A DNA stretch of 32,000 nt, taken from assembly GCF_000008465.1 (NCBI RefSeq), contig NC_006512.1:2310001-2342000 (forward strand). Reading direction: 5' to 3'. The notes under the pieces are model-generated. The model saw nothing but the letters and a program-made list of their open reading frames with translations. It was not told the origin of the DNA and ran no database searches. The stretch's first letter is position 1, and each line of letters begins with the position of its first letter. Positions 4,608 to 31,937 of the stretch are shown piece by piece. The stretch is from Idiomarina loihiensis L2TR (GTDB taxonomy: Bacteria; Pseudomonadota; Gammaproteobacteria; Enterobacterales; Alteromonadaceae). The position numbers and the translations under genes are program-made.

Positions 4608-5639
4608 TTAAGCAGCAGTCATCCGGTAATCTTCTTTATTCTTTAACATCGCCCAGATTATCCGGGCGTGCTTGTTAGCCAGTGCCACCGCTGCAACGTT
4701 GTTGCCTCTGCGTTTAGCGACATCCTGTGCCCAGAGGCTCAGCCTGTCGTGGCGCTGTTGTGCCACCCGCAGTGCCGAGCGGGCGCCATGCACCAGCAGT
4801 GTCCTGAGTTTGGTGTTCCCTTTTTTGGTAATACCGCCTAAACGGTCTTTACCGCCACTGCTGTTTTGCCGTGGTACCAGTCCCAGGTATTCCGACAGGT
4901 TGCGGCCGCGTTTAAATTCACTCACATCACCTATCAGTGCCAGCAGCGAGGTCGCTGTTATCGGTCCGATACCCGGCAGGGTCATCAGCCGCTGACTGTC
5001 TTCATTCCTTTCGGCCTGTGTCGCTAAGTGCTTATCCAGCGCTTTAACTTCTTCATCCACCGCTCGCAGCATCTGATAGAGCCGGTTGATGAGGTCCCGT
5101 GACTGAAGCGTCAGCGCATTGCTGTCGTCTTCCAGTACCTCCGGTACTCTCTGTAATATCGTACCGACTCGCTTCGGTAAAAGAATGCCGTATTCGGCCA
5201 GTTGCCCCCGCAACCTATTCGAGAACTGCGTTCTCGTCTGCACGAAGCCTTCCCGCTGATTGACCATCAATGCTAAGTCCTGCTGCTCAATGCTTTTCAG
5301 CCTGACCGTCTGACGGTTGGGTCGTGATGCCGCCTCGGCTATTGCCCGGGCGTCATTCGCATCGTTCTTCTCACCCTGCAGGTACGCTTTGACGAAACGC
5401 GGTGGCAACGCCACCGTTTTATAACCCAGCTTTTCACATTCGCGGCGCCAGTAATGACTCATGCCGCAGGACTCAACCGCTACTTCACAGTCATCCGTAC
5501 GGCTCAGCGTCGCCAGCTTCGCTAACACTTTATTGCTGCGCAGTTTTTTATTAAAAACTTCCTGCTCATTTTCATCCAGCGCCAAAACCTGAATAAAATC
5601 CTTTGCCAAATCCAGGGCAATTCTGTTTACAATAGCCAT
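4608..5639 (-). CDS. IS110-family transposase/recombinase (DEDD RuvC-like N-domain plus C-terminal Tnp domain)
   Basis: The N-terminus MAIVNRIALDLAKDF, then VESCGMSHYW and KNDANDARAIAE, fit the DEDD motif. The C-terminal LPGIGPITATSLLALIGDVSEFKRGRNLSEYLGLVPRQNSSGGK...KKGNTKLRTLLV fits the IS110 Transposase_20-type domain. I place the start at the ATG at 5639, which follows a GGAGAGG SD. The track ORF start at 5720 would run into the terminal inverted repeat. Confidence 0.9.
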   Translation of the reverse strand: MAIVNRIALDLAKDFIQVLALDENEQEVFNKKLRSNKVLAKLATLSRTDDCEVAVESCGMSHYWRRECEKLGYKTVALPPRFVKAYLQGEKNDANDARAIAEAASRPNRQTVRLKSIEQQDLALMVNQREGFVQTRTQFSNRLRGQLAEYGILLPKRVGTILQRVPEVLEDDSNALTLQSRDLINRLYQMLRAVDEEVKALDKHLATQAERNEDSQRLMTLPGIGPITATSLLALIGDVSEFKRGRNLSEYLGLVPRQNSSGGKDRLGGITKKGNTKLRTLLVHGARSALRVAQQRHDRLSLWAQDVAKRRGNNVAAVALANKHARIIWAMLKNKEDYRMTAA

Positions 5640-5707
5640 TGGTCCTCTCCACTCTGTTCTATAGAAGCTTGAACCTCTATATTGGCACATTGCGATGCCG
5701 CTTAGGA

Positions 5708-5720
5708 GGGAGGGGACCAT
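5708..5720. repeat. Right (transposase-proximal) inverted repeat of the IS
   Basis: gggaggggaccat is the exact reverse complement of 4349-4361. Confidence 0.85.
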
Positions 5721-7429: not shown

Positions 7430-9349
7430 TTAACGATTTTTGTCGGTATCAGAGTCGTTGTCTGAGCCCAATTCTTCCTGCTGACGAAGGTAACCAGCGG
7501 CCTCTTCATCAGAAGTCTTCGACTGCGATTGCTGCAGTCTGTCCTGGTCTGTTGGAATGGCGCGGGTCTGCTCATTTAACTGATGTATCTGTGAGGCATT
7601 GCCCAAATCGCGATTACTGGTTATAGAAGCAATAGACTCGCGGTCTTTCAGGAAGTCGATAACATCCTTACGGATAGACGCCATTTCGTCATCCGATTTA
7701 TGCATTTCCAGAATATGTCGCGGATGCTCCAGATTTTTCATTCCGGTTGCAGCAAAAGTTGTCGACACAATACGTGACACGATAACCCAGGGAGTAATAC
7801 TACTGCGAACGAGCGTATTCTCTGAGCGAGTACTGTCGTGAATACCGGTACCGGTTGAAATTTTAGACTCAGTAAAGGTTCCTTCGCACTTAAAGTAAAT
7901 AAGCATGGATTCAAACTGAATTTCCGCATAAAAAAGATGCGCGATATTAGCGGCTAAACCCGCAAATGCCCGCAGGACATAGCCAATAAGATAAAAATGA
8001 ACGGCAGTCATGACTACGCCTGCTAAGGTCATTAAGTCGCTATAGGGAGTCTCTTCAGTCAGCCTATAGTTCATGCTATCAAGAAGTTTGACCACATCGA
8101 CTGCTGCATAGGCTAAGAAAAACGTAAAAACCACACCGATAATGAACAAGCTATTACCCAGCAACAAGCTGACCAAGCGCGATTTATCAAATAACCCGCC
8201 CAGTCCCATAGGTTTTACCTGAGGCTGAATTTCCTGAATCATCTCCCCGCTAAAGGCACCTTTGCCGTCAACGTGTTCCTGCAAGTTAGGATCCAATTCA
8301 CGATACACACGGTTTGGCACTTCGCGATAACGACGGTTTGCCATGACCAGATTGTCCAGGTTGATAAAAATCTCTTTAGGGTGCACCGACTCCTGCCAGT
8401 TTTCCCGTAATTCAGAGACTTCAGAAACCGGATTCGCATGAGCCAAACGTCTTTTTAGCAACACCACAGTGACAGCCGTGCAAACTAAAGCGCCAACAAA
8501 AATACCAAATAAGTACCAACCTGCATGAAAGTCCGGCAACGCTGCATAATACTGCTCAACCGTTGCCGCCGTTACGTCTGTTGCAGCCATCCACCAGCTC
8601 ACTACCAGCCCTACCACAACAGGCAATAACAAGGCGAAAGCAATAATCTTGACCAGGTCGCCGCTGCCCATAGAATCGATAGTCTGCTCCGCACCACGGG
8701 ATATCGCCTTACCAGCGGCCTTCCATACGTGCATGATGTAAAGCGTCAATAAAACAGTGTAGACAGGGAAAGCCAGCACGCCTGCATCTCCGGCAAAACC
8801 AGCCAGGGACACAAAGGCAGCAAAGCCAAACGCAACCATTGCCGTAAGAGTACGCACCCAGGCGCCTAACAGGCGTTGCGCCATATTACGAATGGGATAA
8901 GGCATAAACAGTAACTTGGGAAATACCGTGTGAGCTATTCTCGCCAGTAAGCCTTTGGGCTCTATAAAGGTGCTGTTTTTGCGGCCCATAAGCATTTCTT
9001 CCAGAGCCTGATCGTTATAAGCAACATAACGCGACTCTTCCTGAGCGGTACTACGCTCAGACTTACTATAGTTAGGGGCCAGTGACGTAGGGTGATTACG
9101 ACCAACAAAGTAACGCAGCATTGCCATAATGCCGCCGCTCAGTACTTTAATGCCGACTGCCAGAAGCGAAATACCGAAAATAGCCAGCACCCACCCCATA
9201 ATCGGATCTTGCTTTACGGAACCAGCACCTGCTACCAGCAAATATACACCAAACAGCGATTGCACAACCCCACGAATACTGGTTACCAAGCCCTCTGTTT
9301 TAAACGGATTTTTTAATCCAAGATCAATCGAACCGTAATCAAACGCCAC
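7430..9349 (-). CDS. Hypothetical polytopic inner-membrane protein (about 8 or more TM segments) with an acidic C-terminal tail
   Basis: This 639-aa ORF is long, shows no frame competition and contains multiple 20-30-aa hydrophobic segments. It has a soluble C-terminal region of about 170 aa ending in SDNDSDTDKNR. I recognise no family motif. It appears monocistronic. Confidence 0.7.
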   Translation of the reverse strand: MAFDYGSIDLGLKNPFKTEGLVTSIRGVVQSLFGVYLLVAGAGSVKQDPIMGWVLAIFGISLLAVGIKVLSGGIMAMLRYFVGRNHPTSLAPNYSKSERSTAQEESRYVAYNDQALEEMLMGRKNSTFIEPKGLLARIAHTVFPKLLFMPYPIRNMAQRLLGAWVRTLTAMVAFGFAAFVSLAGFAGDAGVLAFPVYTVLLTLYIMHVWKAAGKAISRGAEQTIDSMGSGDLVKIIAFALLLPVVVGLVVSWWMAATDVTAATVEQYYAALPDFHAGWYLFGIFVGALVCTAVTVVLLKRRLAHANPVSEVSELRENWQESVHPKEIFINLDNLVMANRRYREVPNRVYRELDPNLQEHVDGKGAFSGEMIQEIQPQVKPMGLGGLFDKSRLVSLLLGNSLFIIGVVFTFFLAYAAVDVVKLLDSMNYRLTEETPYSDLMTLAGVVMTAVHFYLIGYVLRAFAGLAANIAHLFYAEIQFESMLIYFKCEGTFTESKISTGTGIHDSTRSENTLVRSSITPWVIVSRIVSTTFAATGMKNLEHPRHILEMHKSDDEMASIRKDVIDFLKDRESIASITSNRDLGNASQIHQLNEQTRAIPTDQDRLQQSQSKTSDEEAAGYLRQQEELGSDNDSDTDKNR

Positions 9350-19439: not shown

Positions 19440-21623
19440 ATGGAAATCAATGTAAACTTTCTCGACAATATGCGCCTTGAGGCGAAATTCGATGACTTCA
19501 CAGTTATTTCGGATCAGCCTATTCGGTACAAAGGCGATGGTTCTGCCCCCGGTCCTTTTGACTACTTTCTGGCGTCTTCCGTTATGTGCGCGGCGCACTT
19601 TATTCGTTTGTATTGCGACGCCCGCGATATTCCAACCGAGAATATCCGCGTCTCGCAAAATAACGTGGTCGACCCGGAAGACCGCTATAAGCAGCTGTTT
19701 AAAATTCAGGTTGAGTTACCGGCCGATATTTCCGAGAAAGACCGCAAAGCCATTATCCGGGCAGCCGAGCGTTGCGCCGTTAAGCGCGTTATCGAAAACG
19801 ATTTAGAGTTTGACGTCGAAGCGGTTGAAAGCATCACTCAAGACGCTCAGGCGTTACTGACCATACGCCCTGACAGCGACAGCCGAACCTATATTGAAGG
19901 TAAAGACTTACCGCTGGAACAAACCATAGCCAATATGACGGCGATACTGGCGGACTTAGGCATGAAGATAGAAATATCCTCCTGGCGTAATATTGTTCCG
20001 CATGTGTGGTCGCTGCACATTCGCGATGCCGCTTCTCCTATGTGCTTTACCAATGGCAAAGGCGCCACCAAAGAAAGCGCATTATGCTCCGCGCTGGGTG
20101 AGTTTATTGAACGCTTAAGCTGTAATTTCTTCTATAACGACCAGTACTTTGGTGAAGAAATAGCAAACGCTGAGTTTGTGCACTACCCCAACGAAAAGTG
20201 GTTTAAGCCCGGCACAAACGACGAGCTTCCCACGGAAATTCTGGACGAATACTGCCGTGAGCTTTATGACCCTGAAGGTGAATTGCGCGGTTCACACTTA
20301 ATTGATACCAACTCAGGCCGGGCTGACAGAGGGATCGTTTCATTGCCGTTCACGCGTCATTCCGACGGCGAAACAGTTTATTTTCCGTCAAACTTAATTG
20401 AAAACCTGTATTTAAGTAACGGTATGAGCGCAGGTAATACCTTGCCCGAAGCTCAGGTTCAATGCTTATCGGAAATTTTTGAGCGCGCCGTTAAAAAGCA
20501 CATTATTGAAGAAGAAATTGCTCTGCCCGATGTGCCGCAAGAGGTGCTTAACAAGTACCCGAATATTCTGGAAGGAATAAAAGCCTTAGAAGAGCAAGGC
20601 TACCCAGTGTTAGTTAAAGATGCTTCGCTTGGCGGTCAGTTCCCGGTAGCTTGTGTTACTTTAATGAACCCACGCACCGGCGGTGTTTTTGCTTCTTTTG
20701 GTGCGCACCCAAGCTTTGAAGTGGCGCTGGAACGTAGCCTGACGGAGTTATTGCAAGGGCGCAGCTTTGAAGGTTTAAACGACCTGCCAGCCCCAACTTT
20801 CAACTCCATGGCCGTAACCGAGCCAAATAACTTTGTTGAGCACTTTATTGATTCGTCGGGTGTGGTGTCCTGGCGTTTCTTTAGCGCTAAGTCCGACATT
20901 GAATTCGTTGAGTGGGACTTCAGCGGCTCTAACCAGGAAGAAGCCGATACGCTGTTTGGTATTTTGCAGGACATGGGCAAAGAAGCTTACATAGCCGTGC
21001 ACGAAGATTTAGGCGCGCCAGTATGCCGTATTCTGGTACCAGGCTATTCTGAAGTTTACCCCGTGGAAGACCTTATTTGGGACAACACCAATATTGCTCT
21101 GCAATACCGTGAAGACATTCTCAACCTGCACCGCTTAACCGACGATCAGTTAGAAGACTTAGTTGAGCGCCTGGAAGACAGTCAGCTTGATAACTACATG
21201 GATATTATCACCCTGATTGGTATTGAGTTCGACGAAAACACGGTTTGGGGTCAGCTCACCATTCTTGAGTTAAAACTGCTTATCTACCTTGCGCTGCAAC
21301 GCCATGACGACGCTTTCGAATATGTAGAAATGTTCCTGCAGTTCAACGACAACACCGTTGAGCGCACGCTATTCTACCGTGCCATTGAAGCCGTACTGGA
21401 AATTACTCTGGACGAAGAGCTAGAGCTGGATGACTACCGCTACAACTTAGGCCGCATGTATGGCGAAGAGACCATAGAAGCCGTTATAGGCTCTGTTAAT
21501 GGTACTACACGCTTCTACGGTCTAACGCCAACCAATATGCAACTGGAAGGTCTGGACAGACACTTACGCTTAATAGAGAGCTACAAGAAACTGCACGCGG
21601 CACGGGCTGAACGGCAGGTTTAA
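19440..21623 (+). CDS. ycaO: OsmC-domain / YcaO-domain fusion protein
   Basis: The first ~130 aa are OsmC-like (GSAPGPFDYFLASSVMCAAHFIRLY...AERCAVKRV). A full-length YcaO-like region follows (TNGKGATKESALCSALGEFIERLS, NGMSAGNTLPEAQVQCLSEIFER, SFGAHPSFEVALERSLTELLQG) with a helical C-terminal domain. Confidence 0.85.
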   Translation: MEINVNFLDNMRLEAKFDDFTVISDQPIRYKGDGSAPGPFDYFLASSVMCAAHFIRLYCDARDIPTENIRVSQNNVVDPEDRYKQLFKIQVELPADISEKDRKAIIRAAERCAVKRVIENDLEFDVEAVESITQDAQALLTIRPDSDSRTYIEGKDLPLEQTIANMTAILADLGMKIEISSWRNIVPHVWSLHIRDAASPMCFTNGKGATKESALCSALGEFIERLSCNFFYNDQYFGEEIANAEFVHYPNEKWFKPGTNDELPTEILDEYCRELYDPEGELRGSHLIDTNSGRADRGIVSLPFTRHSDGETVYFPSNLIENLYLSNGMSAGNTLPEAQVQCLSEIFERAVKKHIIEEEIALPDVPQEVLNKYPNILEGIKALEEQGYPVLVKDASLGGQFPVACVTLMNPRTGGVFASFGAHPSFEVALERSLTELLQGRSFEGLNDLPAPTFNSMAVTEPNNFVEHFIDSSGVVSWRFFSAKSDIEFVEWDFSGSNQEEADTLFGILQDMGKEAYIAVHEDLGAPVCRILVPGYSEVYPVEDLIWDNTNIALQYREDILNLHRLTDDQLEDLVERLEDSQLDNYMDIITLIGIEFDENTVWGQLTILELKLLIYLALQRHDDAFEYVEMFLQFNDNTVERTLFYRAIEAVLEITLDEELELDDYRYNLGRMYGEETIEAVIGSVNGTTRFYGLTPTNMQLEGLDRHLRLIESYKKLHAARAERQV

Positions 21624-21625
21624 AA

Positions 21626-22576
21626 CTAAAAGTTCAGCCCGACAAAGGCTCCGCGGTTACGTTTAGCAACAGCCTGCATGAAGGCAGCAAAGGTTTCCGC
21701 GTTGCCTTGCGCGCGGCTAAAGCCTATTCCATGAATACGCATTACCGGCTTGCCATCGGCTCCCTGGTTCTGACTGGTTATCTGCCGAACTATGGCGTCT
21801 AAGTCACTGGCCCGGTAGTCGTCACCAAAAACGTACAAGCTGGTTGTGCCTTTGGTTTTTTTATAAAGGTTAATGGCTTTCAGAATACCCAGCTCAGGCG
21901 CACTTTTACCGCCGGTAAAGTTTGGCATTTGTTGCATGGCCATTTGTCTGAACCGTTTGCTGTCCGGTAACCAGTCACCCGCTTTACTGCTGAACATAAA
22001 GTCACCGTCGGCGGCCATAATCTGAAAGCCCTTCATTTTCGGGTGACTTTCTATAATGTCGTTAACAACGCTAATAACCCGGCTCCAGCCGCGGCCTCCC
22101 GACATAGACCCGGAATTATCAATAACAAACACCACGTACTCAGCGTCAGTTGGGATACCGCCTACATCATCATCAGGTGTGTCTGTGCTGTTCGGCGTGT
22201 TTAGCATTGCAGTGGCTTGCCGTATTTCAGCCCTTAACGACGAGGCTTTATCCTGCAATTGTTGCAGGGTTTTCTGTGCCCGCGGAATAGAGCTTTCTAG
22301 ATTCTTTTCCTGCTCAGTGACTGATGCGGTCTTTTGCTCGGCGGCCTTAAGCTCATCCTGTTTGTCGGACAAAGCCCCTTTTAATTCCTCAACCGACTGC
22401 TGCGCCTGCAATACTTCTGCAACTAAGGTACTGAGGTTAGCTGGCCCACGCTCGGTATCTTCAGTACCGTTTTTCGCTAACAACACCAGCATAATCACCG
22501 CACCAAAAGCACAGGAAATAATATCCAGAAAGGCCAGGTTGAAAACCTCTACTGGCGCACGCTGAATTTTTTTCAT
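21626..22576 (-). CDS. TolR/ExbD-like TM, coiled coil and vWA (MIDAS) protein, paralog 2
   Basis: The N-terminal TM (VFNLAFLDIISCAFGAVIMLVLL) carries an Asp placed as in ExbD/TolR. About 75 aa of heptad-rich helix follow, then a vWA fold with DNSGS (nt 22106-22120) and VFGDD. I prefer the ATG at 22576, which overlaps the upstream TAA by 1 nt with GGAG 8 nt upstream. The track start is the GTG at 22585. Confidence 0.8.
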   Translation of the reverse strand: MKKIQRAPVEVFNLAFLDIISCAFGAVIMLVLLAKNGTEDTERGPANLSTLVAEVLQAQQSVEELKGALSDKQDELKAAEQKTASVTEQEKNLESSIPRAQKTLQQLQDKASSLRAEIRQATAMLNTPNSTDTPDDDVGGIPTDAEYVVFVIDNSGSMSGGRGWSRVISVVNDIIESHPKMKGFQIMAADGDFMFSSKAGDWLPDSKRFRQMAMQQMPNFTGGKSAPELGILKAINLYKKTKGTTSLYVFGDDYRASDLDAIVRQITSQNQGADGKPVMRIHGIGFSRAQGNAETFAAFMQAVAKRNRGAFVGLNF

Positions 22577-23634
22577 TATGGCCACTCCGGAGCTGGCGAT
22601 AAGAATGTGCCGCCGCTTACCCGCGACCAGTTCCAGTAAAGCGGAGAAGCGTAGGGGTCACCTTCTATAGGCAGCAGTATAATATTGTAACGAACACCTT
22701 TAGGAGCGCGCTTGATGGTCTCAACCATCAATGCCTGACGGCAGTCTGAGGAGATAGATTTTTTCGTCGAAATAAAATTACGACAGGAAAGCGGCAGGCC
22801 GTCTCCCAATGTTGGCAGGCCATCCGTTACAATGTAGACATCGGTAATATTCGGATTCGTCTCAAATAACGTGCTAATGCCCAGCTGAAGGTTGGTTCCG
22901 CCCTCTGGCACAACCGCGCCTAAGTCTTTCACTATAGAATTCATAGAGCCGCTGACTGAGGCAGTGCTAACGTTCCGTTGCCCTAAACGGTTTGCCGTAT
23001 TGGAAAACGTCACCACACTCACTTTTGAGGTTTGCGGCAGTCTTGCCAGTAACCACTGAGCAACCCGCCGTGTTCTTATCCACTTAGCGGTAGACACTTT
23101 TTTGCCATCGCTCAAAGCCAGTTTGCTCAGCACGTCAATTAAGTTATCGCCCATCATAGAGGCGCTTTTATCGACCAGAATGCCTATTTGTTCGCCTTCC
23201 ACTTTCATGCCGGTGATAAAGTTCTGCTCACCCGTACCCGAAAGCTCAACGTTGGCTGACTTCTCAACTTCTTTGGACAAGGCCGCTAACTGGTTTTCCA
23301 AATCGGCAACTACGGCCAGCTGAGTCGACAAGTCCTGCAAAGCTTTGGTTTGATCCTGGGTGGTGTCGTTTTTCGCTTCTTTAGAGTCTTCCTGCTTAGC
23401 CGACTCCAGCGCAATTTTGTCATTAATTTCGTCAATGGACTTTTTCAGACGCTGCTGCTCGTCCATTGATGCCGCCAGCTCCTGCTCAAGCTTTTCTTTC
23501 TCTTCTGAAGGGTCGGGCGTAAAAGCTTTAAAATCTATCAGGATAAAAATAAGGATAACGGCGCCCAGCCCGCATGCCATGACATCCAGAAAAGATAAGT
23601 TAAAGCCGTCGCCAGCCTGGCGTGGTCGTCGCAT
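22576..23634 (-). CDS. TolR/ExbD-like TM, coiled coil and vWA (MIDAS) protein, paralog 1
   Basis: The N-terminal TM (GFNLSFLDVMACGLGAVILIFILI) has Asp17 at nt 23584-23586. A coiled coil of about 85 aa follows. The vWA domain has a complete MIDAS: DKSAS (nt 23158-23172), GGT, and TDG. Confidence 0.8.
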   Translation of the reverse strand: MRRPRQAGDGFNLSFLDVMACGLGAVILIFILIDFKAFTPDPSEEKEKLEQELAASMDEQQRLKKSIDEINDKIALESAKQEDSKEAKNDTTQDQTKALQDLSTQLAVVADLENQLAALSKEVEKSANVELSGTGEQNFITGMKVEGEQIGILVDKSASMMGDNLIDVLSKLALSDGKKVSTAKWIRTRRVAQWLLARLPQTSKVSVVTFSNTANRLGQRNVSTASVSGSMNSIVKDLGAVVPEGGTNLQLGISTLFETNPNITDVYIVTDGLPTLGDGLPLSCRNFISTKKSISSDCRQALMVETIKRAPKGVRYNIILLPIEGDPYASPLYWNWSRVSGGTFLSPAPEWP

Positions 23635-23647
23635 CTGAGTCGCTCAA

Positions 23648-24418
23648 TTAACTGTGTAAATGAGACAGCAAGTGCTTCTCGCAGGACTCTTGCGTGCGGA
23701 TAACCATCTTGTCCTGACGGCTGTTCAGCAAGTGCATAAACAACATCAGAATCAAAGAAATAAACAGCGCCACCAGCGTTGAGTTAAAAGCCACACCCAG
23801 CGATGCAGTCATACCGGCAATGTCACCATCCAGTGCCTTGTCGGCCTGCGCCAGCGCCGAGCCAATACCGCGCACCGTACCCACGAAGCCAATAGACGGA
23901 ATAGCCCAGATAATGTAGCGGATCATGTTGTTGCCGCTTTCTAACTGAATGGCAATATTGTCTACCGACGACTCGATGGTGTCAGCTGCGTGCTGAACGT
24001 TTTTGGTGTTCTTAAAACGACGAATACAGTTAATCCAGGTGCTGTATGCGGGGGTTTCTTTATAAGCCGAGCTTTCTAAGTCATTTAATGCGGCATCAAC
24101 GTCCAGCGCTTCGGACTTGTCGTAGCTTTCCAGTAAGTCGCGCGAATAAATTTCTTCTTCGTCAATTAACCGCCACAACTTATACAACATAAGGAACAGA
24201 CAGAACAACATGAGCGAAATACACACCTGCTGTTCAACATCTTTGAAGATAACCGAAAATGCAGTTAAAGCTTCTGTCCCTTTCTCTGCCATTGCCACTT
24301 CGGCCGCCGGGCGAATAAGTCCCGCATACAGCAAATGTATCAGGGTAAAAATAGCCAGTAGCACACCACCACTGACAAAAAAGTTAGGGCTCATTGAAAG
24401 CGTATTATTTTTAGACAT
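23648..24418 (-). CDS. MotA/TolQ/ExbB proton-channel family protein
   Basis: The 256-aa ORF has three hydrophobic helices and the family core (IRYIIWAIPSIGFVGTVRGIGSALA...MTASLGVAFNSTLVALFISLILMLFMHLL). Confidence 0.9.
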   Translation of the reverse strand: MSKNNTLSMSPNFFVSGGVLLAIFTLIHLLYAGLIRPAAEVAMAEKGTEALTAFSVIFKDVEQQVCISLMLFCLFLMLYKLWRLIDEEEIYSRDLLESYDKSEALDVDAALNDLESSAYKETPAYSTWINCIRRFKNTKNVQHAADTIESSVDNIAIQLESGNNMIRYIIWAIPSIGFVGTVRGIGSALAQADKALDGDIAGMTASLGVAFNSTLVALFISLILMLFMHLLNSRQDKMVIRTQESCEKHLLSHLHS

Positions 24419-24433
24419 TATGCATTCCGGGCG

Positions 24434-24541
24434 TTAAATGTTGGTGGGGAAGTCTTGTGGTGCATCCAAAGACACAAAATAAGCCGTCGCGCTGCCGGCC
24501 AGAGCCAGCAGTATGACGCCCAAAATCACGCGTTTTTTCAT
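24434..24541 (-). CDS. Small (35-aa) membrane or signal-peptide-like protein, not in the supplied ORF track
   Basis: My translation is MKKRVILGVILLALAGSATAYFVSLDAPQDFPTNI followed by TAA. A strong SD (GAGGAG, 24549-24554) lies 7 nt upstream of the ATG. The ORF fills the gap between the FGE-domain gene (14 nt upstream) and the MotA-like gene (15 nt downstream). Confidence 0.55.
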   Translation of the reverse strand: MKKRVILGVILLALAGSATAYFVSLDAPQDFPTNI

Positions 24542-24555
24542 GATGTTTCTCCTCA

Positions 24556-26538
24556 TCACTCATGATACCGGGCTATTCTAAAGCCGATATCCTCTGCCGA
24601 AGTGCTTTCGCCGTCGCGAACGCTGGCACGAATATTCTTCATGCGTCCGGTTTTATAAGACGCACCTTTTACCACATTCCCATTACCACGAGCCGCACCC
24701 TGGTAATCGGTGTAAACCCGGTCAAGGTCAGGCGGGTTTAAAGTGTAACTGTCGTGTACCCACTCTTTGACGTTGCCGTCTAAATCAAAAAAGCCGCCAC
24801 GCTCTGCTTTAAAACTGCCTACCGGTGCTTTACCGGCAAAACCGTCATTGTAACCACGTAAAATGAAAGTCTGCTGACCTTTTGCAGACTCATCGGCAAA
24901 GTTGCCCTGCTTGTCACGCAGGTGTTCCTGGCTGCCCCACACGTAAATAGTGGAGTCGGCTCTGCGATTAATTTTGGCAATGTATTCCCACTCGGCTTCA
25001 GTCGGCAAGCGGTAACCACGCGAGCTAGCATCGGTTCCCACCACTTTACCGTTACTGACTTTATAAAAAGGCTGCAAGCCTTCCTGTTCGCTCAGCCAGT
25101 TGGTAAATAACGCAGCTTCGTCCCAGGACACATTCGTAACCGGCATTTTGGTTTTACTACCCGAGCCTTTAAACGCGGCAAACTGCGCCTCGGTAATTTC
25201 ATGGCGCGATATCCATACGTCCCGTGAGAAATCCACTTTCACCTGATGCTCATTACGTCCGCGGTTTGGCTCATTAACCGGCGAGCCCATAGTGAATTTT
25301 TTCGGCGACAGACGGTTCATTTCAATGCCTAAAGTACTGACAAACAACGGTCTGCCTTCTTTTCTTCTGGCATCAAACTCGCGCAGCATCTCGGCTTTTA
25401 CGTTCACCAGCCGCTCGCTGCTAGGCTGAAACTCCTGCTTAACCGTACGGTAACCGGTTTTACGAAACTCAACGTTAGAAGGCAAAGCTTGCAAAGTGGT
25501 GCGAAGCGGCGTTACGCCCTGCTTTTGTCCGTTAATGTAAACGTCGCTGGGTTCGTTGGAGGTAAAAGCTACGTCACCCATTTCCGGGTCTAAGTTAAAG
25601 GTCAGCTGCTGATTCTCGGCTGGACCCAGCTTAATTGTCCGGCTTTGCTTAATGTAGCCGGCCTTTTCGTAACGAATAACATGTTCTTTATTGGCATCAA
25701 CGCTAACTAGATTTTTTGCCGGCGCGCCGTTAACCAGCAACGCTCCGCCCTTCGGGTTCACCGAAACATTAACGGTTGCCTGCACTGGCTGTAGTCGATA
25801 ATTACGCTTAGGTTCTTTATTGCGCACGGTTAAAGACACGGTGTCCGTTACCGGTTCATACCCCGGATAATTCACCACCACAGGGTAGTCGCCACCCACT
25901 TTAGCAACGGTTACCGGCGTTGAACCCACCTCTTTGCCGTCAAGGGTAACCGACGCGCCAGCCGGGCTGGAGTTAATAGAGATAGTGCCACTAATAGGGG
26001 TTAGCCGAAGTTGATATTCAACTTTACCGTCTATTAACGCCTCAATTGCCACTGAAGCAGGCTCGTAAGCCGGATGCGAGGCCGACACCGTATACGTTCC
26101 GGGAGCAAATTCATCCTCAAAGGTAGAAGCGGTTTCTCGCTGCTCACCGTTAACTGACCAGACAATATCATTTGCGCCCGGCTCTGTTGTTATCGTCACT
26201 TTTGCCGGTTTAGGCTCCAGCTCAACTTCAATAGTTGAAGGGCTGTTGTCGTTTACCTGCACTTCTTTGGTTTGGTACTTGTCGGCCGAAACCGCCACGA
26301 GGCCACCAGAGCCTACCGCGTAATATTTATTGTCGATGAAAAAGCCAATACCGGAATTAACCGCAAAGCGCTGAGTTTGCGCAGCTTCTGTTGGCTTTAC
26401 GGTAAAACTGTAGCCTTTGGTTAGAAACAACCAGCCAAAGTAAATAACCAGCAGTGCAAGAATACTGACCGAGAAGCCAATAGCCATTAGCCGTCGTTTA
26501 CGTCGTCCTTTCTCAATGGCTTCGTCAAGTGTGGCCAC
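24556..26538 (-). CDS. N-terminally anchored protein with PEGA repeats and a C-terminal FGE-sulfatase (SUMF1-like) domain
   Basis: GTG start with an AGGAGAG SD 5 nt upstream. The TM is LMAIGFSVSILALLVIYFGWLFL. Several PEGA-type modules are present (for example SSPAGASVTLDGKEVGSTPVTV and SDVYINGQKQGVTPL). FGE-sulfatase motifs are present (KFTMGS, VSWDEAALFTNWLS, YRLPTEAEWEY, GNVKEWVHDSY, VVKGASY, IGFRIAR). The translated protein contains no cysteine. Confidence 0.85.
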   Translation of the reverse strand: MATLDEAIEKGRRKRRLMAIGFSVSILALLVIYFGWLFLTKGYSFTVKPTEAAQTQRFAVNSGIGFFIDNKYYAVGSGGLVAVSADKYQTKEVQVNDNSPSTIEVELEPKPAKVTITTEPGANDIVWSVNGEQRETASTFEDEFAPGTYTVSASHPAYEPASVAIEALIDGKVEYQLRLTPISGTISINSSPAGASVTLDGKEVGSTPVTVAKVGGDYPVVVNYPGYEPVTDTVSLTVRNKEPKRNYRLQPVQATVNVSVNPKGGALLVNGAPAKNLVSVDANKEHVIRYEKAGYIKQSRTIKLGPAENQQLTFNLDPEMGDVAFTSNEPSDVYINGQKQGVTPLRTTLQALPSNVEFRKTGYRTVKQEFQPSSERLVNVKAEMLREFDARRKEGRPLFVSTLGIEMNRLSPKKFTMGSPVNEPNRGRNEHQVKVDFSRDVWISRHEITEAQFAAFKGSGSKTKMPVTNVSWDEAALFTNWLSEQEGLQPFYKVSNGKVVGTDASSRGYRLPTEAEWEYIAKINRRADSTIYVWGSQEHLRDKQGNFADESAKGQQTFILRGYNDGFAGKAPVGSFKAERGGFFDLDGNVKEWVHDSYTLNPPDLDRVYTDYQGAARGNGNVVKGASYKTGRMKNIRASVRDGESTSAEDIGFRIARYHE

Positions 26539-26580
26539 GAAGTCTCTCCTGTTTTTTTAATTATTCTACGCTAAATTATG

Positions 26581-28014
26581 CTAAACGCGTTCGTTACACT
26601 GAACGTTAATAACAATTGGCGTGCCCGACTTCTCCACCACAACATCGACAATGATTGAGCGGTAGCCATCGCGGCGGCCTTCTAATTGGTATTTACCCGG
26701 CTTTAACTGGATGGTTTTCTCTCTTACCTCACCCACAACACCAACGCCCAGTACTTTTATATAAGTGCGGTTGTCGGAGCGAATGGTCACATCTATGGGC
26801 TGATTTTCCTTTTCAATAAGCTGCTCAACCTGGTTTATTTTTTCACCCAGCTTTGCGCTCAATTGCGTGAGCCCACTGTATTTGGACACCGCATTCACGG
26901 CATTTTGGCGAATGTTGTTGTCAGCAAGCCGGCCCGGTCTTTCAATATAAACATCCAGCGCACTGCTGGCGGCTAATATTTCTTCCGCGCTTTGTTTAGC
27001 CTGCTGCACAACCCGGCTGTCCGGATAATCGACCAAACCCTTTTCTGCCAGCATCTGTACCGTCTGCCATTCGTCGGCACCGGCAAAGACCTGAATGCGT
27101 TTTTCTAACGACTTCACACCCTGACTTTTTAACTCAGCGTCAATTTGCGCCTGCAGGGTTGCCAGTTCCGGCCGGTTGTTGTCTATAGCCGAAGCTTTGG
27201 TTAATGCCTCCTGGGCGCGATCAAAGTCTTTTTTATCAATGGCATTCACCGCCGTTGCCAAAGCACCGGCAAAACGTTGTTGTTTAATTTGCTGTTCCAC
27301 TTTCGCTAAGGCTGCCTTGGCATCCTGCTGTTGCGGATCAAGCTTTAGAATTTGTTGATAAGCAGCACGCTGCTTCTCTATATTGCCTTCTACACCGCCT
27401 ACTCTGGCCTGTTCATACAAATCAGCGACTTCATGGTAGGTATCTATACGTTTCTGAAACGCCAGCGCGTCGCTAAAATCGCCTTTTACCTTTAACGCCT
27501 GAGCATTCAACTGAGCGGCATCATCAATGTCGTCGGCAGCAAAGGCTTTTGCTGCGTCCGCATAAGGTTGTCTATAAGCCTTTTCAAACGCGCTTTGGTA
27601 CTCTGTAATATCTGTGTTGAGTTGCTCAATAGTGGTTTGCGCCTGGCTGTAATTACTGGCGCCATAGTCATTAAAAGCCTGATCTATGTCGGTCTGAAAA
27701 GCCTCAACTTTGGCGGGCTGCCACGTCGATATATACGGGGTAGCAACAAGCTCAGAAACGCGGTGATTGGTCTCATTTAAGGCCGTTTGCAGCGCTTTTC
27801 TGTCTATTGCCTGGTTAGCGGAACTTATCTGCGGCTCGCTTTTCTCTTGTTTTTCCGCGACTACCGGCGTGTTACCCGAAACCGGAAAATAAGCGAGCAA
27901 AGTAACGACAACGCCAATCAGCAAACAGGCAAAAACAGAGGCAATTACACCGGTTATTATGACTTTTTTCTTTTTAGCACGGTTTTCTGCTATTTGCTGA
28001 TCAACAGACGACAT
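26581..28014 (-). CDS. N-terminally anchored periplasmic helical (TPR/TolA-like) protein with a C-terminal PEGA-like beta domain
   Basis: The 477-aa ORF has a Lys-rich N-terminus and one TM (VIITGVIASVFACLLIGVVVTLLAYF). About 330 aa of Ala/Gln/Asp-rich helical repeats follow. The C-terminal ~70 aa (VTIRSDNRTYIKVLGVGVVGE...LKPGKYQLEGRRDGYRSIIVDVVV) resemble a PEGA module. Confidence 0.7.
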   Translation of the reverse strand: MSSVDQQIAENRAKKKKVIITGVIASVFACLLIGVVVTLLAYFPVSGNTPVVAEKQEKSEPQISSANQAIDRKALQTALNETNHRVSELVATPYISTWQPAKVEAFQTDIDQAFNDYGASNYSQAQTTIEQLNTDITEYQSAFEKAYRQPYADAAKAFAADDIDDAAQLNAQALKVKGDFSDALAFQKRIDTYHEVADLYEQARVGGVEGNIEKQRAAYQQILKLDPQQQDAKAALAKVEQQIKQQRFAGALATAVNAIDKKDFDRAQEALTKASAIDNNRPELATLQAQIDAELKSQGVKSLEKRIQVFAGADEWQTVQMLAEKGLVDYPDSRVVQQAKQSAEEILAASSALDVYIERPGRLADNNIRQNAVNAVSKYSGLTQLSAKLGEKINQVEQLIEKENQPIDVTIRSDNRTYIKVLGVGVVGEVREKTIQLKPGKYQLEGRRDGYRSIIVDVVVEKSGTPIVINVQCNERV

Positions 28015-28035
28015 CGTTACCTTTCCTTAGGTGAA

Positions 28036-29319
28036 TTAAAGCTGAGTTAACGGCGTTGATTCGAGATCATAAATCTCTTTCAGCTTTTCACGTAATTGCG
28101 CGTATTGCTCACCAGCGGTACCGGTTAATTCAATGTTCTGGTCATTAAGTTCTACCACCTGCGGAGTTACTTTTATGTCCAGGTTTTGTCCCATTTCATC
28201 AAGCAGCGCACGTTGAGTGCCTAATTCACGGTTGGTTTTTATTGCTTCGCTTAAGCTGTAAACCGCACCTAAACCTGCCGCCGCACTAGCCACCTGGCCA
28301 GCGGTAGAGCCTGAATTTTTACCCAGCAAAATAGCGGCCGTAGCTAAAATACCAGCACCAACCTGCGCGCGGGTTCTCTCTGCTTTCTTCTGTCGAATAT
28401 CAATAGCAACCGGCAGAGTCTCTTCCTGATAAGTACGGTATGCATCATGGGTCGTTGCATAGAAGGTGTCGTAACTGTCCTGCAATGAGTCAACAAACTG
28501 CTGGTCTTTCGCTTTAATCACATTAACCCGCTGATACATAGGGTCTGATTCAGCCGGAGCGCCGTTCAGCGTAATAGTTGAACGGCTCGAAAAGATACTA
28601 CTGGACTCACCCAGATAACCACCAAAGGCTTCAGGACTGTACATTGCGGCATAGCGCATATCTGAAACCGCCTGAATGGTTTTCTTCTCTTCTTCAGATT
28701 TTTTAATTAGCAAGTCATAAACATAACCCGCAATGCTTTCAAAAATTGGACCGTATGGGTTTTCACCTTTTCTTAACGCGTCACGGTAAAAGCCTGCGCC
28801 TACCTGATACTCAAACTCTTCCTCGCCCCAAATTTGGTTACTGGCGTCCATAACACGAACACCAATTTCAACGGTTTCGGTGTCTGAGTAGTTAATTTTT
28901 CCCAGCACGTAAACATCGGCACTGACGTTAGCATCGGGAGTCACATTCACTGCACCAAAGGCTTTAGTATCAGAAAGTGCTTCGCGGGTATTTACCGCAA
29001 AACGGTTCGCCTCTAAACGACGCACCTGTGGCCAAATGTCTTCTTCAACTATGGCTTCATCATCAATATTGCCGGAACTGTCTTTCGGCAACCCCGGGTC
29101 AAACACCGGAATAGCCACATTAAGATAAACATTAGAGTTGTAACTGTAGCTACGCTCTTTTTTGCCCAAGGCTTTAGAGTCTGACGGACCATTCATGCTT
29201 GGGCCAACGCTGGTAACATTAGTTTGGGTTGACTGGCAGCCGGCTAATGTAAACATTGCAGAAAGCGTCATAACGACTGAAAATCGTTTTAGTTTTTTTA
29301 GTTGAGCTAGTGTATTCAT
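28036..29319 (-). CDS. Lipoprotein of unknown function with a C-proximal Gly/Ala-rich hydrophobic segment
   Basis: A signal peptide with lipobox LAGC (Cys28, Gln at +2) is present. The GGAAG SD is correctly placed. Near the C-terminus is the Gly/Ala-zipper-like stretch VGAGILATAAILLGKNSGSTAGQVASAAAGLGAV. I recognise no family motif. Confidence 0.7.
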   Translation of the reverse strand: MNTLAQLKKLKRFSVVMTLSAMFTLAGCQSTQTNVTSVGPSMNGPSDSKALGKKERSYSYNSNVYLNVAIPVFDPGLPKDSSGNIDDEAIVEEDIWPQVRRLEANRFAVNTREALSDTKAFGAVNVTPDANVSADVYVLGKINYSDTETVEIGVRVMDASNQIWGEEEFEYQVGAGFYRDALRKGENPYGPIFESIAGYVYDLLIKKSEEEKKTIQAVSDMRYAAMYSPEAFGGYLGESSSIFSSRSTITLNGAPAESDPMYQRVNVIKAKDQQFVDSLQDSYDTFYATTHDAYRTYQEETLPVAIDIRQKKAERTRAQVGAGILATAAILLGKNSGSTAGQVASAAAGLGAVYSLSEAIKTNRELGTQRALLDEMGQNLDIKVTPQVVELNDQNIELTGTAGEQYAQLREKLKEIYDLESTPLTQL

Positions 29320-29338
29320 GTTCTTCTTCCGTTAATTA

Positions 29339-29878
29339 TTAACATCCGTACTCGGCCATTAAGCCTTTAAAATGTTCCTTTTCAGCTTCGGTTGTTGCCG
29401 AAGCCATGCCTTCTTTCACTGCGTCGCATACGGCAGAACTGCCGCCACCGCTGTTGCCACGCTTATGATCTTTTGTATCCACCGAACTTTCCGATGCCGT
29501 AGATGTAGATTGCTGTTGTTGCTCACTGGAGTTTGCGCCGCTATTACCTGAACTACCAGCCGAACCCGAAGCTCCACCTGCAGCACCAGAACCGCTGCCG
29601 CTGGCAGCATCAGCAAGGCTGCCGGAAGCCGACACAGTGGCCTCTTCCATACACTCGGCAGAGTCATCTAAAGAGGCAAACAGCGCAGCCTCCTCAAGCG
29701 CAATGCGTTCTTGCAGAGTAAGCGTGCTGGGGTCGACGTCGTCGAACTCTATGTAGGCACAATCGGAATAGCTTTTCTCCTGAGCTTCAGCCACACCACT
29801 GCCCAAGCACAACACCGCCAGAAAACACACAGGCGCATAGGCAAAGAAGTTGATGAGTGATGAACTGATTTTATCCAC
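29339..29878 (-). CDS. Secreted Ser/Gly-rich low-complexity protein with conserved-looking cysteines; first gene of the operon
   Basis: GTG start. The signal peptide is FFAYAPVCFLAVLCLGSGVAEA. An acidic segment is followed by the SGSLADAASGSGSGAAGGASGSAGSSGNSGANSSEQQQQSTSTAS tract, and the protein ends in a terminal Cys (AEYGC). Start codon choice is uncertain. Confidence 0.55.
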   Translation of the reverse strand: MDKISSSLINFFAYAPVCFLAVLCLGSGVAEAQEKSYSDCAYIEFDDVDPSTLTLQERIALEEAALFASLDDSAECMEEATVSASGSLADAASGSGSGAAGGASGSAGSSGNSGANSSEQQQQSTSTASESSVDTKDHKRGNSGGGSSAVCDAVKEGMASATTEAEKEHFKGLMAEYGC

Positions 29879-29935
29879 GGTAGGAACCTATAAAATGACT
29901 TGAGGGCAGTACTCAGATAACGTTAAGTTAAGGTT

Positions 29936-29966
29936 ATTATATTCCTGAATGTAAATAAACTGTAAA
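29936..29966 (-). promoter_or_regulatory. Candidate sigma-70 promoter of the eight-gene operon
   Basis: On the minus strand there is a perfect -10 TATAAT (29936-29941) and a -35 TTTACA (29961-29966), separated by a long 19-nt spacer. This lies about 58 nt upstream of the GTG at 29878. The -35 belongs to a cluster of three TGTAAA repeats on the plus strand (starting at 29950, 29961 and 29967). Confidence 0.4.
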
Positions 29967-30005
29967 TGTAAAATTTCTGTGGGTAAGCTGGCTGATTGCT
30001 GCTAT

Positions 30006-30932
30006 TTACATCACACCATCATTACTTTTGAAACGCTGTAGCATAAAATCAATAAACAGCCTTACCCTGTATGGAATATTTTCTCTGTCCCGGTAGAGCA
30101 TTTCACACCCGCGAGCCTGGTTGCTCCAGGCCGGTAAAATGTGTTGAATTTTGCCTGACTCGAGCAGAGGTTGCGCGTGGTAGTCGGGAATAAAGCCAAC
30201 GCCTATGCCACCCGCTATCACTTCAGTCAGTAAACTCATGTCATCCACTTTTAAGCGTATGTTGTCGGTAGCCGTATAAGCCTGCTTTTCACCCGAGTGA
30301 ATATGCTGCAGACTCCAGGTCAGCATAGGCGAACACAGCACCGTGGGTAACCCGGCTAAGTCGGCGGGAGCCTTTATGTGGGATACATCCAAATTTGCCG
30401 GACCGCAAATAGCAAAACGAATATTGGTTAACTGTCGGCCAATCCAGTGAGTTGCGCTGTGATGACCAATGCGAAAAGCCAGGTCCATGGCTTCTTCATC
30501 AATGTCTATAGTTTGGTTGGATAGCTTTAAGTCGAGCTCAATGTCCGGATACTGCCTCATAAACGCATTAAAATGATGAACCAGTACCTGAACGCTGAAA
30601 TTAATTGGGGCAGAAATTCTTATCGTACCCTTGGCCTCGTTTCTGTCCTGCTGCAGGCATGCAGCCACATTGTCCAGCTCGTCGAAAATGGGCGCACTTC
30701 TGCGATAATACCGTTGCCCCGCAAAGGTTAGTTGCACACGGTGAGCGTCCCTATTAAAAAGCCGCAACGCTAAGTCTTGTTCCAGCTTGGCAATTCTGCG
30801 ACTGAGTGTGGAAAGCGGCATTTGTAAGGCAACCGCCGCTTGTTTAAAACTGCCATACTGCGCCACCATGCAGAAGCAGCGCATGTCATCCAGTGAGTAA
30901 TTAGGTTTCATATTTGGAATTTTAATTCCCAT
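30006..30932 (-). CDS. LysR-family transcriptional regulator
   Basis: The N-terminal wHTH is LDDMRCFCMVAQYGSFKQAAVALQMPLSTLSRRIAKLEQDL. A LysR substrate-binding fold of typical length follows. An alternative start at M8 (30911) is possible. Confidence 0.9.
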   Translation of the reverse strand: MGIKIPNMKPNYSLDDMRCFCMVAQYGSFKQAAVALQMPLSTLSRRIAKLEQDLALRLFNRDAHRVQLTFAGQRYYRRSAPIFDELDNVAACLQQDRNEAKGTIRISAPINFSVQVLVHHFNAFMRQYPDIELDLKLSNQTIDIDEEAMDLAFRIGHHSATHWIGRQLTNIRFAICGPANLDVSHIKAPADLAGLPTVLCSPMLTWSLQHIHSGEKQAYTATDNIRLKVDDMSLLTEVIAGGIGVGFIPDYHAQPLLESGKIQHILPAWSNQARGCEMLYRDRENIPYRVRLFIDFMLQRFKSNDGVM

Positions 30933-30940
30933 TTTCTCTT

Positions 30941-30955
30941 ATTTATACCGTAAAT
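30941..30955. promoter_or_regulatory. LysR-type T-N11-A box in the divergent lysR/eamA intergenic region
   Basis: ATTTA-TACCG-TAAAT is a perfect 5-bp inverted repeat containing T-N11-A. It lies 9 nt from the lysR ATG and 56 nt upstream of the transporter ATG. Confidence 0.4.
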
Positions 30956-31010
30956 AGAATCTATACACTGTCAGCCATGATTTCTCAAGTTTCTTCCTGC
31001 GGAGATACCT

Positions 31011-31937
31011 ATGAACCGTTCAGCCAATACAAACGCTGTTTTGCTATTACTATTATGCGCTTTTTTCTGGGGAGCTTCCTTTCCCGTAGGCAAACACGCT
31101 CTGGGAGAAGTTCACGCCCTGACGTTAGTTATTTGGCGTTTTGCTATAGCCGCCGCGTGTCTGTTTGCCTTTATAAAGTGGAAGCGCATACCCATACCCG
31201 AGTTAAAAGCTAAACAATGGCTGTGGGTAGTTGGTGTTTCCATTGTTGGCGTAGGCGGACTCAACCTTGGGTTATTCACTGGGCTGGCTCAAACCAACGC
31301 CAGTAATGGCGCTTTGATTATGGCGCTAAGCCCGTTAACCACATCGCTAATTGGCTCTTTATTACAACGTAAGCTGCTGACCCGCGGAGCCGTATTCAGC
31401 CTGGTGGTGTGCTTGTCGGGTGTATTGCTTGTGCTCACCAACGGCGAACTGAAACGCTTACTCAGTTTCGAATTCAACCACGGTGACCAGATCATCTTCT
31501 TAGGTATGCTGTGCTGGAGCCTGTATACCTACTTAACGCAAGGCATTAGCCGCTGGATGCCTATGATCCCCTACACCTTTATTGGCATGCTAGCCGGCCT
31601 TGGCGTTATTTCTGTAGTAGCGGCGTTTAGCGCAGAAGCCCACCCTGTCCAGGAAAGCCTGGCAATAAGCCAAATTGTCTTAGCCGACTTACTCTTCATT
31701 GGTGTTTTTGGCACCGTGGGTGGTTATTTACTGTGGATTTCCGGCGTTAAACAGCTTGGTGCCGCAAACGCCTCTTTGTTTTTCAACTTCGTGCCCATTT
31801 TTGCTGCACTCACGGCTGTAACTTTTGGCCAGAACGTGGCCAGTTTACAGCTACTGGGTATGGCTATTGTCATCTCCGGATTGCTGCTGCCGCGACTAAC
31901 TCATTGGCGACAGCAGCGTTTTGCGCGGATGGGTTAA
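31011..31937 (+). CDS. DMT superfamily (EamA-like) transporter
   Basis: The 308-aa ORF has about 10 hydrophobic helices in two EamA-like halves (LLLLLCAFFWGASFPVGKHAL...). GGAG lies 8 nt upstream of the ATG. It is divergent from the LysR gene. Confidence 0.85.
   Translation: MNRSANTNAVLLLLLCAFFWGASFPVGKHALGEVHALTLVIWRFAIAAACLFAFIKWKRIPIPELKAKQWLWVVGVSIVGVGGLNLGLFTGLAQTNASNGALIMALSPLTTSLIGSLLQRKLLTRGAVFSLVVCLSGVLLVLTNGELKRLLSFEFNHGDQIIFLGMLCWSLYTYLTQGISRWMPMIPYTFIGMLAGLGVISVVAAFSAEAHPVQESLAISQIVLADLLFIGVFGTVGGYLLWISGVKQLGAANASLFFNFVPIFAALTAVTFGQNVASLQLLGMAIVISGLLLPRLTHWRQQRFARMG

Follow-up and report, generated by a model that had tools for sequence, protein, structure and literature searches.

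The 5:2 ion-driven motors power flagella, TonB-dependent uptake, the Tol-Pal system, gliding along with type 9 secretion, and defence by Zorya, and every new output module for such a motor is another route by which inner-membrane energy can reach the cell surface. Here, we analyzed a 32,000-nucleotide stretch of Idiomarina loihiensis L2TR DNA (contig NC_006512.1, positions 2,310,001 to 2,342,000, forward strand; hereafter the window, in whose own numbering all coordinates are given) that encodes a TolQ/ExbB-type A subunit followed by two paralogous proteins, B1 and B2. Each of the two joins an N-terminal transmembrane helix to a coiled-coil stalk and a head of the von Willebrand factor A (vWA) type, and we consider it quite likely that they act as the B-type ("axle") subunits of a TolQ/ExbB-type motor.

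Proteins of this design have been described before. A computational study (Mol Biol Evol 2025;42(6):msaf138, PMC12204202, Fig. 4c-d) predicted a family of membrane-tethered vWA proteins, "TPH-vWA", encoded directly beside tolQ-like genes where tolR/exbD genes are lacking. According to that study, TPH-vWA proteins come mostly as heterologous pairs, lack an SHLS motif, and have a trans-pore helix that resembles the one in TolR/ExbD and conserves its Asp. The figure shows the gene clusters of the top 200 homologues of Idiomarina loihiensis, and in an AlphaFold 3 (AF3) 5:2 model of the I. loihiensis complex both Asp residues lie within the pentamer's Thr ring. TPH-vWA was proposed to supply the dimer in a 5:2 motor, and the authors state that no deletion phenotypes have been reported. 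B1 and B2 combine an N-terminal transmembrane segment with a vWA domain, have a tolQ-like neighbour and no tolR, exbD or motB gene, form a heterologous pair, and carry a conserved Asp and no His in the helix. They are the TPH-vWA family, from which they differ in nothing of substance. The architecture, which an initial annotation of this DNA had taken to be undescribed, is thus already known as a published computational prediction with I. loihiensis as its example species, and the value of the window is therefore practical rather than conceptual. Our additions are the conservation of the metal ion-dependent adhesion site (MIDAS) in the heads, the heptad stalk, a conserved operon of 6-7 genes that includes a lipoprotein and a cysteine-free PEGA protein resembling the formylglycine-generating enzyme (FGE), and an extra gene in a divergent branch. 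The words MIDAS, coiled, sulfatase, and PEGA occur 0 times in the text of PMC12204202, and MIDAS and sulfatase are also absent from the supplements searched for these two.

The locus can also be set against ExbB-ExbD and TolQ-TolR. It shares with them the A fold and the pore Thr residues, the A-then-B gene order, and B chains with a basic tail and a single transmembrane helix whose Asp lies near the cytoplasmic end within a similar local motif. Unlike ExbD and TolR, B1 and B2 have no significant match to PF02472; an ExbD/TolR-type or OmpA-type periplasmic domain is absent from both in Pfam and NCBIfam, which returned coiled-coil and vWA matches only. Two further differences are that there are two different B genes here and that no TonB/TolA-like third subunit is encoded.

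The motor genes and their parts are as follows, with the evidence for each in brackets.

23648..24418, minus strand: A subunit, TolQ/ExbB-type, 256 aa, presumed pentameric ring (PF01618, AlphaFold 2 [AF2], Foldseek)
22576..23634, minus strand: B1, putative B-type (trans-pore helix) subunit, 352 aa, transmembrane helix plus coiled coil plus vWA (open reading frame [ORF], VWA_2 at 5.6e-7, alignment, AF2, Foldseek)
23530..23604, minus strand: B1 transmembrane, putative trans-pore helix, residues 11-35, with the Asp17 codon at 23584-23586 (conservation)
23275..23511, minus strand: B1 heptad-repeat stalk, residues 42-120 (AF2 helices, periodicity)
22579..23202, minus strand: B1 vWA domain, complete MIDAS D155/S157/S159/T247/D271, invariant C284 and C298 (Pfam, alignment, AF2, Foldseek)
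21626..22576, minus strand: B2, paralogue of B1 with the same architecture, 316 aa from ATG or 319 aa from GTG 22585 (ORF, BLASTP, alignment)
22472..22543, minus strand: B2 transmembrane, putative trans-pore helix, residues 15-38 in GTG numbering, with the Asp21 codon at 22523-22525 (80-sequence alignment)
22202..22453, minus strand: B2 heptad-repeat stalk, residues 45-128 (periodicity)
21629..22138, minus strand: B2 vWA domain, MIDAS D156/S158/S160/S228/D255 in 80/80 sequences (VWA_2, alignment)

The start of B1 follows the A gene after 13 nt. The B1 stop codon and the B2 ATG share 1 base (...CCA TAATG AAA...), an overlap that suggests translational coupling, and a GGAG lies 8 nt upstream of the B2 ATG at 22576. 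Orthologue alignments favour this ATG over the GTG at 22585 that was called automatically as the B2 start. The initial annotation had noted the 1-nt overlap and the position of both genes directly after a MotA/ExbB gene, A then B; these points hold, and its coordinates and all the sequence features it quoted are correct. It had also called the two proteins distinct paralogues, in agreement with BLASTP, which aligns residues 11-162 of B1 and B2 at 25% identity (E 2e-10). With I. abyssalis KMM 227, B1 shares 98% identity.

The A subunit matches PF01618 (MotA_ExbB) at 9e-15 and 55 bits (cut-off 22.9), and its AF2 model has a predicted local distance difference test score (pLDDT) of 82. The closest structures found by Foldseek are E. 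coli and Acinetobacter TolQ together with ExbB (TM-score 0.57-0.70; TolQ 9ddm, 8e-4), and PomA/MotA are further away (TM-score ~0.42). T181 and T214 of the A subunit are invariant and align with T145 and T178 of TolQ, as well as with GTVWG, the corresponding ExbB motif. The A subunit does not reach the cut-off of any of the NCBIfam equivalogs for TolQ, ExbB, and MotA, so we place it in a separate clade. The A-subunit profile had no match among PDB sequences, and the link to TolQ/ExbB is made through Pfam, hhalign, and fold comparison.

In the 5:2-motor literature, A subunits of this kind always act with a B partner. A phmmer search with E. coli ExbD, TolR, and MotB found none in the window, nor any beside the cluster across 80 genomes, with the exception of a MotB homologue (matching E. 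coli MotB at E ~1e-46) located ~7 kb downstream of it in six Rheinheimera loci. These MotB genes (L023, L024, L027, L028, L030, and L031, at ~18.5-19.7 kb) probably encode an unrelated flagellar stator. A Zorya-like anti-phage defence system was considered and rejected: PADLOC returned only a weak ZorA2 match (E 1.5e-4, through the shared MotA/ExbB core), there are no ZorC/D-like genes, and all partners are envelope proteins.

Both B chains begin with a short basic tail followed by a single hydrophobic segment, with the helix sequence FNLSFLDVMACGLGAV in B1 (containing D17) and FNLAFLDIISCAFGAV in B2 (containing D21 counted from the GTG, or D18 from the ATG). We aligned 81 B1 and 80 B2 sequences spanning 41-98% identity. 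The transmembrane Asp is invariant in all of them, as are F15, V18, M19, A20, C21, G22, L23, G24, and A25 around D17 in B1 and F19, L20, I23, C25, A26, F27, and A29 around D21 in B2 (GTG numbering). The helix is in fact the best-conserved part of both proteins, with a mean column identity of 0.89 versus 0.62 for the whole of B1 and 0.90 versus 0.62 for the whole of B2. The transmembrane anchors of two other proteins of the cluster, which served as controls, fall below their protein means (0.42 versus 0.55 for the 660-aa protein and 0.29 versus 0.43 for the 477-aa protein). Conservation of the B helices where these control anchors drift indicates a constraint that ordinary anchors lack.

A 46-column profile of the helix was then used to search a database of 1.84 billion representative proteins, of which 1797 matched at E <= 1e-3. 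Among the 150 matches listed, all 34 full-length proteins (>= 300 aa) keep the Asp-containing helix [FV]-[LI]-D-[VI]-[MI]-[AS]-C-G; 32 of the same 34 also have DxSxS, and 30 have a C-terminal W-P. The initial annotation had singled out the membrane Asp of both helices and made its reading depend on orthologs retaining it, and it is kept in the 81 B1 sequences, the 80 B2 sequences, and the 34/34 full-length matches listed. Neither the B1 nor the B2 helix contains His or an SHLS-type motif. The basic tails, the acidic flanks on the C-terminal side of the helices, and the two invariant Cys of the B1 vWA domain fit a topology in which the N terminus would be cytoplasmic and the head periplasmic.

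The order A-B1-B2 is kept in 80/80 genome loci from Alteromonadales, Cellvibrionales, Granulosicoccus, Endobugula, and others. A divergent branch of ~60 metagenome loci at 26-47% identity keeps it too, with one gene inserted, and overall the order was seen in ~160 loci. Wherever the contig is long enough, both B genes are found side by side without exception, and the stop codon of one often overlaps the start codon of the next. The motor genes sit in a conserved envelope operon of 6-7 genes, and the family captured by the helix profile comprises ~1800 representative clusters and is carried by 318 species genomes.

Between helix and head, each B chain has a stalk with one heptad phase held over ~80 residues, similar in length in the two proteins. 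Column-averaged hydrophobicity peaks at a period of 3.5, with a power of 48 in B1 and 66 in B2 and at most 9 at a period of 3.6 (permutation p = 2e-4 for B1 and p < 2e-4 for B2), and the AF2 model of B1 has helices at residues 42-83 and 91-120. The 75-85 aa of heptad-rich helix proposed at the outset are therefore borne out. From the transmembrane Asp to the first MIDAS Asp, the distance is 137-138 residues in B1 and 134-139 in B2 in one branch and 153-156 in B1 and 142-143 in B2 in the other.

A vWA fold had likewise been proposed for both proteins. Pfam VWA_2 scores above its cut-off in each, the AF2 model of B1 has pLDDT > 90 over most of residues ~145-345, and the Foldseek matches of the B1 domain are the CLCA1 VWA (3e-8), BatB (7e-7), and the VWA domains of calcium-channel alpha2delta. 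The five MIDAS positions of B1 (D155, S157, S159, T247, and D271) are invariant in the alignment, in accord with the initial annotation. For B2, that annotation had described the Thr position as altered (GGKS), but the position is an invariant Ser228, alongside the equally invariant D156, S158, S160, and D255, so that the B2 MIDAS is probably complete as well. With a complete MIDAS in both paralogues, it is probable that neither head can do without binding a ligand through a metal.

The conservation of the B helices, the A subunit's likeness to TolQ in fold and Thr residues, the lack of any other B candidate in the searches above, and the synteny together support the B-subunit reading well. 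They agree with the initial annotation, which had read both proteins as B-type chains that combine a membrane Asp with a coiled-coil stalk and a MIDAS-bearing vWA head. Several observations weigh against it, however. When the N-terminal 48 residues were searched alone, neither the Pfam models, ExbD and MotB_plug among them, nor the PADLOC ZorB models matched, and the 46-column profile found nothing among all PDB chains at E <= 10; the negative outcome with the 48 residues alone is uninformative in either direction. The AF2 monomer of B1 leaves the transmembrane helix unmodelled (pLDDT ~31-35), and the placement of B1 and B2 within the pentamer is taken from a prediction, the AF3 model of PMC12204202. 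The lengths of the two stalks covary with a Spearman coefficient of 0.48, both being longer in the divergent branch, but this weak covariation is essentially one evolutionary event (two lineages) and includes some regular-expression mis-hits; it is weakly compatible with a putative B1/B2 coiled coil.

Finally, B1 and B2 have no significant sequence link to ExbD, TolR, or MotB, and the best profile-profile comparison, P ~0.01 over 18 columns, is only suggestive. In that comparison, hhalign aligned the B helices to an ExbD/TolR alignment at P 0.009-0.022 over 18 columns, with the B Asp on TolR D23 and the flanks in register as [FI]-N-[LIV]-x-[FP]-[LF]-[LI]-D-[VI]-[ML]. Three transmembrane anchors used as controls gave P 0.08-0.38 in alignments that did not touch the Asp. 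The ExbD/TolR collection held Enterobacteriaceae sequences only and yielded a shallow profile (effective number of sequences ~1.5-1.8), which limits the meaning of P ~0.01, and with a helix of only 25 residues profile significance is out of reach for such a test. Of the resemblance to ExbD/TolR that the initial annotation had seen in the helices, the alignment of the Asp with TolR D23 is suggestive and finds no counterpart in Pfam, PADLOC, or the PDB. Full-length B1 gave weak ZorB matches (E 8e-4 and 5e-3), which disappeared with the N-terminal 48 residues alone; they are accordingly driven by the coiled coil and were given no weight.

If B1 and B2 are B subunits, they could also each form homodimers, giving two alternative motors with different heads, A5:B1 x2 and A5:B2 x2. 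The well-studied B subunits MotB, ExbD, and TolR are homodimers in the literature, and the Asp and a complete MIDAS are kept in both paralogues, so each could work alone. The genes, however, occur next to each other in each locus where the contig is long enough, and the end of B1 frequently runs into the start of B2. Their helices are distinct and each is strictly conserved (DVMACGLGA versus DIISCAFGA), as would be expected for two positions in an asymmetric pore. Their stalks are similar in length and change together between branches, and the published AF3 model was built with one chain of each (PMC12204202). Taken together, these points make separate homodimeric motors rather unlikely, and a B1/B2 pair is the arrangement we prefer.

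It is also conceivable that B1 and B2 are passively anchored periplasmic vWA proteins like BatA and BatB, beside a TolQ-like gene by chance and with a membrane Asp that has no role in proton transfer. BatA and BatB are two paralogous membrane-anchored vWA proteins encoded beside a TPR protein, BatB is among the best structural matches of the B1 vWA domain (Foldseek 7e-7), and the lack of significant sequence homology to ExbD, TolR, and MotB would suit such a role. Passive anchors should drift, however, whereas the B helices are the most conserved part of these proteins and hold an invariant charged residue in the bilayer. Passive anchoring would moreover leave the TolQ-like protein without a B partner, and the synteny is near-absolute. 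As far as we know, the Bat operon has no MotA/ExbB-family gene, having MoxR and DUF58 partners instead, and we know of no conserved transmembrane Asp in BatA or BatB. We regard this explanation as very improbable.

That B1 and B2 are TonB/TolA-like force transducers docked outside the pentamer, as PMC12204202 proposes for another family of membrane-tethered vWA proteins that has the same helix-linker-vWA design and also adjoins TolQ-like genes, is hardly credible, as neither helix has His or an SHLS-type motif, that family co-occurs with tolR-like genes of which there are none here, and the linker here is a coiled coil rather than Pro-rich or disordered.

With B1 and B2 as the B subunits, a mechanism can be proposed. 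We infer that the A gene product would form the outer pentamer and that B1 and B2 would be the two inner chains of a 5:2 proton-driven motor. The N-terminal helix of each B chain would enter the pore of the pentamer with its N terminus in the cytoplasm, and the invariant Asp would take up and release protons against a ring of conserved A-subunit Thr residues. On the periplasmic side the B chains would pair over ~80 residues in a parallel coiled coil, most likely as a B1/B2 heterodimer, and the stalk would carry the two vWA heads, in which the MIDAS may bind an acidic residue of a partner via a divalent cation. Proton flow would rotate the A ring relative to the B dimer, and the stalk and heads would transmit torque or pull to a partner in the periplasm or outer membrane. 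With a MIDAS adhesion domain carried on a rigid stalk and fused directly to the pore helix, such force coupling would need no TonB/TolA-like adaptor. The likeliest partner would be another product of the operon itself, with the PEGA/FGE-like and TPR-like proteins, the lipoprotein, and the small acidic Gly/Ser-rich protein as candidates.

The seven closely spaced genes of the cluster span 29878-21626 on the minus strand (ORF and gene map of the window), and the four that precede the motor genes are listed here in their order of transcription.

29339..29878, minus strand: small secreted Gly/Ser-rich acidic protein, 179 aa (opens the cluster in most of the first 80, or genome-set, loci)
28036..29319, minus strand: lipoprotein, 427 aa, lipobox LAGC, invariant Cys28 (alignment, synteny)
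26581..28014, minus strand: membrane-anchored periplasmic helical TPR-like protein, 477 aa (one N-terminal transmembrane segment, synteny)
24556..26538, minus strand: membrane-anchored periplasmic PEGA-repeat and FGE-sulfatase-like protein, 660 aa (Pfam, synteny)

The transcription unit is drawn from gene spacing only, since promoter and terminator scans over 21000-31200 found sites no more numerous than in shuffled sequence. Rfam had no match within the window. The small Gly/Ser-rich protein went undetected in most metagenome loci in the synteny comparison. Pfam gave only weak TPR matches for the 477-aa protein, and the 427-aa lipoprotein has no relative in Pfam or the PDB; the latter has a hydrophobic stretch rich in Gly, Ala, and Ser (residues ~318-355) followed by a conserved C-terminal domain.

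The 660-aa protein, which is conserved together with the motor genes in ~140 loci, matches PEGA at 2.9e-31 and FGE-sulfatase at 5.9e-34 in Pfam. It has no Cys at all, and the catalytic, copper-binding Cys pair of FGE is therefore absent, which rules out formylglycine-generating activity. In NCBIfam the model nearest to it is GldK/PorK (TIGR03525; 5.4e-20, 72 bits), and PorK is among its PDB matches (3.6e-11). It does not qualify as a GldK/PorK protein, however, as the score is below the cut-off of 350 and it has no lipoprotein signal; its N terminus lacks a lipobox Cys and consists of a basic stretch and then a transmembrane anchor. The comparison with GldLM/PorLM and the ring protein GldK/PorK of type 9 secretion nonetheless extends to the overall design, since those systems also pair a 5:2 motor, in which GldM reaches far into the periplasm, with a non-enzymatic partner of the FGE-sulfatase fold. 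Unlike GldK/PorK, the protein described here is membrane-anchored and carries PEGA repeats, and neither GldL nor GldM shows a detectable relationship to A, B1, or B2.

A second parallel is the AglRQS-Glt system of Myxococcus xanthus, a machine driven by the proton motive force that combines one TolQ-like A subunit with a pair of distinct TolR-like B subunits (AglQ and AglS) and also includes TPR proteins, lipoproteins, and the vWA adhesin CglB (PMC9946355). Both sets combine a TolQ-like A subunit and two different B subunits with a TPR protein, a lipoprotein, and a vWA domain in one envelope set, but in M. xanthus the vWA domain is on a separate outer-membrane lipoprotein, and no Glt homologues were detected here. 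Idiomarina and Alteromonas are not known to glide.

In the divergent metagenome branch (L083-L162), 55 of 62 loci have an extra soluble gene between A and B1 that encodes 374-467 aa (e.g., L089:8871-9995, plus strand). Its profile shows weak but consistent similarity to the Hsp70 nucleotide-binding domain (Ssz1, E 0.0026), and an FHA domain is found in 3/24 members (6.5e-10). This Hsp70-like/FHA gene is absent from the window. Its product may act on the motor from the cytoplasm, as a partner or in regulation.

We tentatively suggest, as a possibility that goes well beyond the B-subunit reading, that all seven genes together specify a single trans-envelope machine, self-contained and of an uncharacterised kind. 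In such a machine, a TolQ-like ring, a heterodimeric axle, and MIDAS heads gripping as operon partner the cysteine-free FGE-like/PEGA protein, the lipoprotein without known relatives, or the acidic Gly/Ser-rich protein would couple the proton motive force to a process at the outer membrane or surface (tethering, secretion, or surface movement) in marine Gammaproteobacteria. It would be an independently evolved parallel of GldLM-GldK or Agl-Glt-CglB, with the Hsp70-like/FHA protein engaging or regulating the motor from inside in the divergent branch. The window supplies a compact and well-delimited operon from a culturable genus, with candidate ligands encoded next door and invariant residues that include D17 of B1, D18/D21 of B2, T181 and T214 of A, and the MIDAS serines. 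The locus is a good experimental entry into a class of envelope machines, as yet uncharacterised, that would be driven by the proton motive force.

On the downstream side, a 727-aa fusion of OsmC-like, YcaO, and YcaO_C domains (19440-21623, plus strand) converges on the operon with 2 nt between the stop codons. It is probably unrelated to the operon, as it adjoins it only in Idiomarina and Pseudidiomarina loci. A LysR-type regulator (30006-30932, minus strand) lies directly upstream on the same strand as the operon, but its position is kept only in Idiomarina and a few other loci, which puts it outside the conserved cluster. Elsewhere in the window, a 639-aa ORF (7430-9349, minus strand) is without a Pfam match at E <= 1e-5. 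An IS110-family transposase gene (4608-5720, minus strand; DEDD_Tnp_IS110 and Transposase_20) lies within a 4-6 kb region where the G+C content rises to ~0.52, and it adjoins a methyl-accepting chemotaxis protein (MCP) gene and two EAL/GGDEF cyclic di-GMP genes.

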